From Escherichia phage 92CQ, in the sequence record PV682554.1: a stretch of DNA of 64,000 nucleotides; one strand, 5' to 3'. Below are positions 37,367-38,005 of the stretch, one piece after another. The notes under the pieces were generated by a model. That model saw only the letters and a list, made by a program, of their open reading frames with translations. It was not told the DNA's origin and did no database searches. A program made the position numbers and the translations under genes. Positions within the stretch are counted from its first letter, which is position 1, and every line of letters begins with the position of its first letter.

Positions 37367-37628
37367 AGAGAATAACGCGCAGGGGTGGTGTTTGTCTCGC
37401 GCTCCCGTGTCCCCTCGCCATACAATAAGAATAGCATAACCAACAACAAAAGCAAGCGATTATTTTTATCTTTACATTTCTTTACAAATTTATTTTAGAC
37501 GAGCTACCGGCGATCAACCTTCCAACCAGTGCCCCCCTGGTATGTTAGCCCCGCCTTTACGCCGTGGGGGTGGCGCTTCCTCTTCTGTATGTAAAACAGT
37601 ATAAGCCCGATCCCTGGGCTTGTCAAGA

Positions 37629-37895
37629 TTATTTTTTGTTTTCTTGCCAGGATAGGACACCTAACCAAAAATACATGTCGCCCCGCGCCCCTGGTGGGAT
37701 CTTGCTTTCCCCGCCGCCACTGCAAGCCCATAGATAACCATTTGCGAACGTATCAAAATGATCTATCTCTTCCACCTTATGATCGCCCAGGTTGAGAACG
37801 GTTTCAACCTTTAAGCCCGTTGCGCTTGCTACCTGGTGCACCGTGCCGCCTTGCCAGCCCAATGAGTGCATGAGATGTAAAGGAGTATTTGTCAT
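37629..37895 (-). CDS. hypothetical protein (88 aa) on GC-rich island, opposite strand
   Basis: Only ORF in a 0.5 kb stretch of visibly higher GC content; weak AAGGG RBS; no recognisable motif. Confidence 0.3.
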   Translation of the reverse strand: MTNTPLHLMHSLGWQGGTVHQVASATGLKVETVLNLGDHKVEEIDHFDTFANGYLWACSGGGESKIPPGARGDMYFWLGVLSWQENKK

Positions 37896-38005
37896 GGTAT
37901 CGCCCTTTCTTTGATGTGCGCCCTGGTTGGCGCGGTAGAAAGATAATAGCCGTTTCCTTTATAGATAGCAAGCAAAAAAGAAATGAAAAAAGATTAAAAA
38001 AATGG

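Follow-up and report, generated by a model that had tools for sequence, protein, structure and literature searches.

Short non-coding units with regulatory or anti-defence roles are known from several phages, among them the pseudo-ToxI RNA of PhiTE, the C4 RNAs of P1 and P7, OOP of lambda and the prophage RNA DicF; PhiTE and the phage considered here are both members of the wider rV5-like group (PMC3475682). ToxI itself consists of tandem repeats of approximately 34–45 nt followed by a toxin endoribonuclease gene, and small H-type pseudoknots are represented by the preQ1 and SAM-II classes and by viral frameshift elements. For protein-coding genes the closest described systems are the morons of lambdoid phages, which are promoter-gene-terminator cassettes, and for operator-like palindromes they are the enterobacterial Fur boxes, described by a 19-bp (GATAATGATAATCATTATC) or a 7-1-7 (TGATAATnATTATCA) consensus.

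Likenesses to these systems are found in a GC-rich island of Escherichia phage 92CQ (PV682554.1), which we analyzed within a stretch of 64,000 nt (the window). With a probability of roughly 0.6, we read this island as two adjacent, independent minus-strand transcription units, namely a moron-like ORF cassette and a structured RNA driven by its own promoter, P1. The surrounding region (36800–38400) shares 99.8% identity with Escherichia phage KKE7M and 96–98% with many Justusliebigvirus genomes. Justusliebigvirus belongs to the Stephanstirmvirinae and groups phi92-like myoviruses of ~148 kb. In the relatives PaulScherrer, alia and Nernie the genes of the locus are labelled only 'hypothetical protein', and alia adds two 'repeat_region' features. 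The parts of the island are the following:

37629–37895, minus strand: gene for an 88-aa all-helical protein of PHROG 19316 (ORF list, PHROG match, dN/dS and AlphaFold model), 49% G+C

37490–37592, minus strand: element A, a candidate structured small RNA of ~103 nt (covariance model, RNAalifold and pair counts), 56% G+C

Between element A and block B: promoter-carrying spacer, 25% G+C

37372–37421, minus strand (strand uncertain): block B, a conserved segment with 65% G+C that contains CGCGAGACAAACACC (28 distinct loci)

As this list indicates, the composition of the island is uneven across its segments. Taken as a whole, the GC-rich anomaly remarked on in the earlier note was borne out, with 49.4% G+C for 37380–37930 versus a window mean of 37.7% (z = 3.9); this is the G+C-richest 551-bp stretch in the 64 kb, and the 0.025% of windows that are as GC-rich all lie at the same locus. 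The contrast is sharpened by the 25% GC of the DNA immediately to the left (36815–37379). We attribute the richness to the GC helices of the RNA, to block B and to the unusual codon usage of the ORF. The GC-rich run GCCCCGCCTTTACGCCGTGGGGGTGGCGC that had been quoted was located at 37548–37576, where it is the opposite-strand reading of the proposed pseudoknot portion of element A. The non-coding half of the island (37372–37628) is conserved more strongly than the ORF.

In the annotated genome of PaulScherrer, genes for nucleotide metabolism and replication occupy the left side of the island; next to them comes a short block of plus-strand genes encoding an FtsH-like protease, a CapR/T5orf172 endonuclease and a NADAR enzyme, and on the right many small hypothetical genes follow one another on the plus strand. 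In this annotation the island does not adjoin any structural or late gene, and its placement between late and early blocks was not confirmed. The start of the small-gene block is marked by a divergent promoter whose -35 hexamer is conserved among relatives:

38006–38034, plus strand: divergent sigma-70 promoter, TTGACG-17-TATTAT (10/12 in a consensus scan)

The 88-aa frame, earlier singled out as the only plausible ORF, is the only sizeable one without a longer competitor, and it is the sole minus-strand gene in a plus-strand region. It is a genuine protein gene. Pairwise dN/dS values against phAPEC8, SKA64 and W70 range from 0.12 to 0.34, nucleotide differences in the same comparisons are concentrated at third codon positions, and the AlphaFold2 model is a confident five-helix bundle (pLDDT 93.8); the ORF evolves as a protein, and these three observations argue against the suggestion that it is a structured RNA misread as an ORF. 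A match to PHROG 19316 (E = 1.5e-58) spans its whole length, so that the description 'no recognisable motif' holds for Pfam and fails for PHROG. By tblastn, the protein is matched in 151 phage records, with identities falling to 36–49% in Klebsiella and Xanthomonas phages. An alignment of 21 homologues from a set of 5.8 billion proteins displays an invariant N-terminal motif, LHLMHSLGWQGGTVHQVASATGL, and FWLGVL at the C-terminus; a profile search of 1.84 billion cluster representatives gave 202 matches at E <= 1e-3, and the motif was also found as a domain inside larger proteins.

Searches of Pfam, NCBIfam, PADLOC and PDB sequences with the protein and its multidomain relatives returned nothing significant, and no significant fold or sequence relative was found in the PDB or BFVD. 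In the predicted model, helices 2 and 3 (residues 19–26 and 30–38) resemble a helix-turn-helix, and weak, non-significant matches to HU, IclR, Cro/XRE and HTH_7 were obtained; we treat the helix-turn-helix reading of these two helices as a weak lead.

The ORF is flanked by elements that would make it a self-contained cassette:

37943–37971, minus strand: predicted sigma-70 promoter of the ORF, TTGCTA-17-TATTAT (9/12 in a consensus scan)

37918–37933, minus strand: GC hairpin GCGCC/GGCGC in the 5' leader of the ORF (read from the sequence)

37621–37603, minus strand: predicted terminator hairpin of the ORF, after the stop codon

Both hexamers of the predicted promoter are kept in phAPEC8, SKA64, W70 and A7_1, the leader hairpin is followed by a ribosome-binding site (AAAGGG), both being conserved in relatives infecting E. 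coli, and W70 retains the terminator hairpin with a different sequence. Codon usage, whose statistics the earlier note had proposed as a check, is indeed atypical, with a GC3 of 0.517 versus a mean of 0.297 ± 0.057 (z = 3.85), above that of all 52 long ORFs of the window. Profile searches upstream of element A detected the ORF family in Stephanstirmvirinae and at some other loci, and did not detect it in 4MG, BIS47, Mydo, CR3, pEa55 or the Aeromonas phages. The slot next to element A is occupied by an unrelated ORF of 61–63 aa in 4MG and BIS47, and in CR3 it holds no same-strand ORF at all.

Like morons, the ORF has a predicted promoter and terminator of its own, is opposite in orientation to its neighbors, is atypical in GC3, and in related phages is missing or has given way to another ORF. 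Unlike lambdoid morons, it resides in a strictly lytic 148-kb myovirus, it is of long standing and keeps its position throughout a subfamily instead of occurring sporadically, and a host-benefit function is not evident. The moron reading stands as regards the predicted signals, the GC3 and the turnover of the slot, and does not stand as regards recent acquisition, since the gene is syntenic across Stephanstirmvirinae and several Vequintavirinae-like phages. Apart from its moron-like features, it is a conserved hypothetical gene of the ordinary kind.

Directly downstream of the ORF lies a near-consensus promoter:

37598–37626, minus strand: predicted promoter P1, TTGACA-17-TATACT (11/12 of the sigma-70 consensus)

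The spacer of P1 holds the terminator hairpin of the ORF; no lineage has lost the -35 or the -10 hexamer, and the spacer hairpin still pairs although its sequence changes. The start of element A coincides with the expected start of the P1 transcript. A search with 37372–37628 matched at least 245 deposited records of phages that infect enterobacteria or Aeromonas. A core of ~125 nt is 82–88% identical in Vequintavirinae (Seunavirus, Mydovirus and Certrevirus), including phages that lack the ORF family, with weaker conservation in Henunavirus, and Aeromonas Plateaulakevirus phages share a shorter stretch of the core at ~81–92% identity. When SKA64 is compared to the window, the protein is 70% identical (dS = 0.64) and the 140 nt past the stop codon are near identical except for the lengths of G/C runs.

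Scans with the invariant motif identified further copies of element A in viral and metagenomic contigs, and the same type of scan over one genome for each of 185,579 GTDB species gave two chance matches only, which indicates that element A is apparently phage-specific. Searched with the island and with element A, E. coli genomes gave no similar sequence, in a database so large that short matches are unreportable. The covariance model described below matches every genuine phage locus exactly once and leaves the chance loci unmatched; its match in the window is at 37592–37490 (102.3 bits). An Rfam search, also proposed earlier, gave no matches for 36000–39000 at E <= 1, Rfam 15 gave none for the whole window at gathering scores, and ARAGORN found no tRNA or tmRNA gene in the window. 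The locus of element A carries no annotation in any phage record listed or inspected, and a non-exhaustive literature search found no report of an RNA, an origin or Fur boxes at this locus, nor a transcriptome of these phages. Judged from the sequence comparisons, element A is thus an apparently undescribed candidate structured RNA beside the ORF.

We read element A as an H-type pseudoknot followed by a long irregular hairpin and an invariant, single-stranded 3' tail of ~20 nt, a model that would comprise the following parts:

37575–37572 with 37563–37560, minus strand: stem S1 (in the covariance model)

37569–37566 with 37552–37549, minus strand: stem S2, the pseudoknot partner (stem table)

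37548–37519, minus strand: long irregular hairpin H3 (RNAalifold, seven covarying pairs)

~37521 to 37497, minus strand: invariant 3' tail, AAGGUnGAUCGCCGGUAG (alignment)

When pairs were counted in an alignment of 36 sequences made with MAFFT, the covariation score was 0.261 versus 0.083 after shuffling. A covariance model was built from S1 and H3, S2 being left out, and in the resulting alignment of 43 distinct sequences 92.4% of the cells are paired and 11 of the 15 pairs show double-sided, compensatory changes. The covariation score of this alignment is 0.275 versus 0.078 ± 0.009 for shuffles, none of 500 of which reached the observed value; such shuffle-based statistics are inflated by the descent that relates the sequences, and the alignment is fitted to part of the structure. 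Controls in which the pairing partners were slid scored 0.049 at most.

The signal is clearest in H3, where all seven pairs covary, one of them with four Watson-Crick types. Its tip exists as a 2–3-bp stem with a UUCG loop, with GCAA or GAAA loops, or as longer stems with loops of 6–8 nt, and the GCAA, GAAA and UUCG loops fit the minus strand only. S2 occurs in five versions (CCCC/GGGG, CUCC/GGGG, CCAA/UUGG, CCAG/CUGG and CCAU/AUGG) and reaches 4 bp or more in 38 of the 43 sequences; a single sequence, L049, retains only 2 bp, and in the main group one column pairs only in a shifted register. As S2 crosses S1, the two stems would form an H-type pseudoknot (4 + 4 bp), whose loop L3 tolerates the insertion of 47 nt present in the Aeromonas phages. 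S1 varies in just two lineages, by CG to AU changes. An alternative long-range helix, CGGC/GCCG, whose GCCG strand lies in the tail, is equally well paired but invariant, and is broken in precisely these two lineages. Pairing of the tail is beyond such a test because the tail is invariant.

Folding energies of single sequences, calculated on both strands for element A and for the non-coding half as a whole, do not stand out from shuffles (z from -1.3 to +1.2), and the covariation is also compatible with a structure formed by single-stranded DNA. Two further candidates at element A were rejected: a reading frame through it, since the G-run of the loop (4–7 G) differs by 1–3 bases among near-identical phages, and a 5'-3' closing helix (AGAAGAG/CUCGUCU), which is not kept in phAPEC8 or pEa55. 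The terminator scan found no minus-strand terminator past element A or block B, and the transcript may extend further, with element A as its leader.

Downstream of element A, a second set of conserved elements surrounds and follows block B:

37469–37486, minus strand: two direct TGTAAAGA repeats, one helical turn apart (alignments)

37428–37455, minus strand: predicted promoter P2, with TTGCTT, a 16-nt spacer and an extended -10 element, TGcTATTCT (alignments)

37256–37363, no strand assigned: cluster of Fur-box-like 7-1-7 palindromes (consensus matching)

37013–37233, no strand assigned: three imperfect direct repeats of ~70 bp, 24–26% GC (repeat search; repeat_region in alia)

P2 was read from alignments and is missed by a simple consensus scan; its hexamers are conserved and its spacer is variable. 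The TGTAAAGA repeats lie just upstream of the -35 hexamer of P2, are conserved as TTTGTAAAGAnnTGTAAAGA in nearly all lineages with P2 and block B, and could be either a UP-like element or an activator site. For block B, RNAalifold gives no consensus structure, and a proposed closing helix is no better than in shuffles. An 18-codon ORF within it was discarded, its frame being altered by single-base indels in W70 and 4MG.

The palindromes resemble enterobacterial Fur boxes, and on this consensus match we regard them as predicted, Fur-like operators. Three sites (37256, 37279 and 37308, within 37256–37322) have one mismatch each over 14 specified positions, weaker sites are found at 37332 and 37349, and perfect sites exist in relatives such as 4MG. 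The window holds eight such sites versus 0.98 expected, a number reached in none of 100 shuffles. At least one site lies within 330 nt downstream of element A in 35 of 44 distinct loci, and the density in these 330 nt is 4.27 per kb versus 0.10 elsewhere (41-fold). The sites are positioned at a fixed distance downstream of block B, and lineages without block B also lack them. Unlike the Fur boxes of iron regulons, they are carried by a virulent phage with no iron-related gene nearby, and most phage copies depart from the Fur consensus by a G at position 4 (TGAGAAT).

Under the preferred reading of two independent units, the first unit would run from its predicted promoter through the gene for the 88-aa helical protein to the terminator hairpin. 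In the second, directly downstream, P1, a near-consensus sigma-70 promoter, would drive an RNA of ~100 nt corresponding to element A, presumably synthesized early by the host RNA polymerase. This RNA might conceivably act in trans. A partner, either a protein or a nucleic acid, would then recognize the invariant tail, which the pseudoknot and the hairpin would hold as a scaffold. P2, block B and the Fur-like operators would constitute a linked regulatory hub downstream.

A more ambitious proposal, which we put forward tentatively and would not expect to hold in full, is that element A founds a new class of phage RNA, common to Stephanstirmvirinae, Vequintavirinae and the Aeromonas Plateaulakevirus phages. 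Host polymerase would then make the RNA in the first minutes of infection, the tail would capture a host or phage factor from its scaffold, be it as a decoy, an anti-defence agent, or a replication or packaging cofactor, and the array of Fur operators to which it is wired would couple to the host iron regulator, or titrate it, during infection.

Three alternatives to the preferred reading, namely an origin or priming element, an obligatory unit with the protein, and conservation purely at the DNA level, appear less likely, and are taken here in descending order of probability. The first, which we judge unlikely, assigns the non-coding half to a replication origin or a priming element, with P1 and P2 firing towards the AT-rich repeats and the transcript or the displaced DNA strand folding to serve priming or strand opening, as modelled on T4 oriF and oriG, the primary origins of T7 and single-strand initiation signals. 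Both promoters do point in the same direction into ~550 bp of ORF-free DNA with 24–26% GC, which carries the three ~70-bp repeats and the palindromes, and several GenBank records were opened 0.4–3 kb from the locus. The covariation, moreover, would fit a hairpin in single-stranded DNA equally well, and in some lineages the hairpin ends in GCGAAAGC or CGAAG-type loops, which are very stable in DNA. On the other hand, the UUCG and GNRA loops are RNA-type caps, the conserved block begins at the expected start of the P1 transcript, and a second ORF-free hub (47530–49240, 1.7 kb), AT-rich and with iteron-like ATCTAACC repeats, looks at least as origin-like. In this phage group, as described for rV5, GC skew tracks the direction of transcription and does not locate an origin (PMC3606486).

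The second alternative, improbable in our view, would make the island one regulatory unit in which the 88-aa protein, as a helix-turn-helix-like binder of DNA or RNA, targets the palindromes or element A and serves, for instance, as autoregulator or ribonucleoprotein partner. The ORF and element A are indeed adjacent and syntenic in Stephanstirmvirinae and in several other lineages, the palindromic sites lie 260–370 bp from the ORF, and the two helix-turn-helix-like helices, with their weak, non-significant matches, would suit such a role. However, element A, block B and the palindromes persist without the protein family in 4MG, BIS47/Mydo, CR3, pEa55 and others, indicating that an obligate partnership with the protein does not exist; none of its matches to folds or profiles is significant, and the palindromes fit the host Fur consensus rather than a novel motif.

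Least probable is the third, according to which 37372–37628 is conserved as DNA only, for its promoters and protein sites, and the apparent pairing arises incidentally from common descent and from GC-rich palindromes to which proteins bind, with no functional RNA: block B without a structural signal, the unexceptional folding energies, a 3' tail and S1 too invariant for a covariation test, and the ability of related sequences to outscore all shuffles even when unstructured are all in keeping with it, but each of the seven hairpin pairs changes on both sides, with up to four Watson-Crick types per position, H3 ranges from a 2–3-bp stem with a UUCG loop to ~7–8 bp, a variation to which a fixed protein site would be intolerant, and the slid-partner controls, which preserve phylogeny, stay at or below 0.049 versus 0.275.

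The reading as an ORF cassette next to a structured RNA bears on phages of practical interest. Stephanstirmvirinae and Vequintavirinae have broad host ranges, are widely isolated for therapy and are used in screens of defence systems (BASEL collection), and large parts of their genomes are still labelled 'hypothetical'. Element A likely matters for infection, because it is 82–88% identical across phages of several host genera and has a strong predicted promoter of its own; if confirmed, it would be an additional Rfam RNA family and offer a small handle on early host takeover. Its association with a Fur-like cluster raises the question of virulent phages sensing or manipulating host iron regulation. 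The main value of the locus resides in the adjacent structured-RNA candidate and its conserved regulatory surroundings, more than in a lone orphan ORF, and for annotation the lesson is that this GC island should not be read as one orphan gene.

Compared with the described RNA systems, element A has no sequence or Rfam relationship to the small phage RNAs. Unlike ToxI, it is single-copy and non-repetitive; looking for a type III toxin-antitoxin arrangement, we found no same-strand gene after element A and no PADLOC match for the neighboring protein, and a link to the pseudo-ToxI RNA of PhiTE was rejected, as that RNA lies at a different locus. Unlike Hfq-dependent sRNAs, element A lacks an intrinsic terminator with a U-tail, and a search of the window for antisense targets of the invariant tail returned its own site only. 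The predicted fold is reminiscent of the H-type pseudoknots of preQ1, SAM-II and viral frameshift elements, with two 4-bp stems, loops L1 and L2 of 1–2 nt and a loop L3 of 6–7 nt, but it differs from them in controlling neither an expression platform nor an ORF downstream, and these classes are without the long hairpin and the invariant tail that element A has. In overall layout it resembles the small regulatory and anti-defence RNAs of phages, as a short non-coding unit with its own predicted host-type promoter, set in an intergenic hub of the phage genome.

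Palindromes of 7-1-7 form that resemble the enterobacterial Fur consensus (TGATAATnATTATCA) occur eight times in the window at two mismatches or fewer, against approximately one expected, and form two clusters, one beside the GC island (37380-37930) and the other in a second non-coding hub. The site at 48724 is perfect. The cluster adjoining element A, the candidate structured RNA of the island (37490-37592, minus strand), is kept across Vequintavirinae and Stephanstirmvirinae. The palindromes and the features that surround them are as follows:

35273-36262: ORF with a CapR domain and a T5orf172 (homing-endonuclease-like) domain, just upstream
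36263-36814: ORF with a NADAR domain (YbiA-like N-glycosidase), just upstream
37013-37233: direct repeat in three imperfect copies (67-75 bp, 70-72% identity)
37256-37363, 38154, 47775, 47833, 48724, 48919: Fur-box-like palindromes, consensus match with at most two mismatches
47530-49240: second ORF-free stretch, 1.7 kb, 33% GC

The second hub carries four of the Fur-like boxes, together with a few GC hairpins and numerous short direct repeats (ATCTAACC-type, two copies of GTGAACAATGACA and three of AATCATTTCAT), and could be an origin or a regulatory region. To the left of the island, the direct repeats, where local GC falls to 24-26%, are flanked by the NADAR gene and by the palindromes; at the equivalent site in related phages the sequence is rich in AAAATTTT. 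GC3 is low (0.27) in both the CapR/T5orf172 and the NADAR ORFs.

LGWQGGT(I/V)HQV, a motif of the protein of 88 amino acids encoded in the island (37629-37895, minus strand), recurs in the protein database as a module within larger proteins of 191-561 amino acids (P0099, P0133, P0137 and P0145), one of which also bears C2H2 zinc fingers. Its presence inside these larger proteins suggests that the module is a portable domain.

This E. coli-phage locus is also found in records labelled Campylobacter phage A145 and B15, Acinetobacter phage vB_AbaM_ABPW7 and a Pseudomonas phage. Protein identity at the locus is 93-99% for A145, B15 and ABPW7, and A145 is 98% identical at the nucleotide level; the host labels of all four records look doubtful. 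Several matched phage records are linearised 0.4-3 kb from the GC-island locus.

Within element A, the G-run in the loop of its long hairpin H3 (37529-37537, minus strand) counts 4, 5, 6 or 7 G among phages that are otherwise near-identical; the tract could be hypervariable, or the site could be prone to sequencing errors. ARAGORN detected no tRNA-like gene in the window, and since the match is also short, chance may account for the likeness of the element A 3' tail GGUAGCUCGUC (37497-37512) to the D-arm/anticodon-stem junction of the E. coli initiator tRNA.
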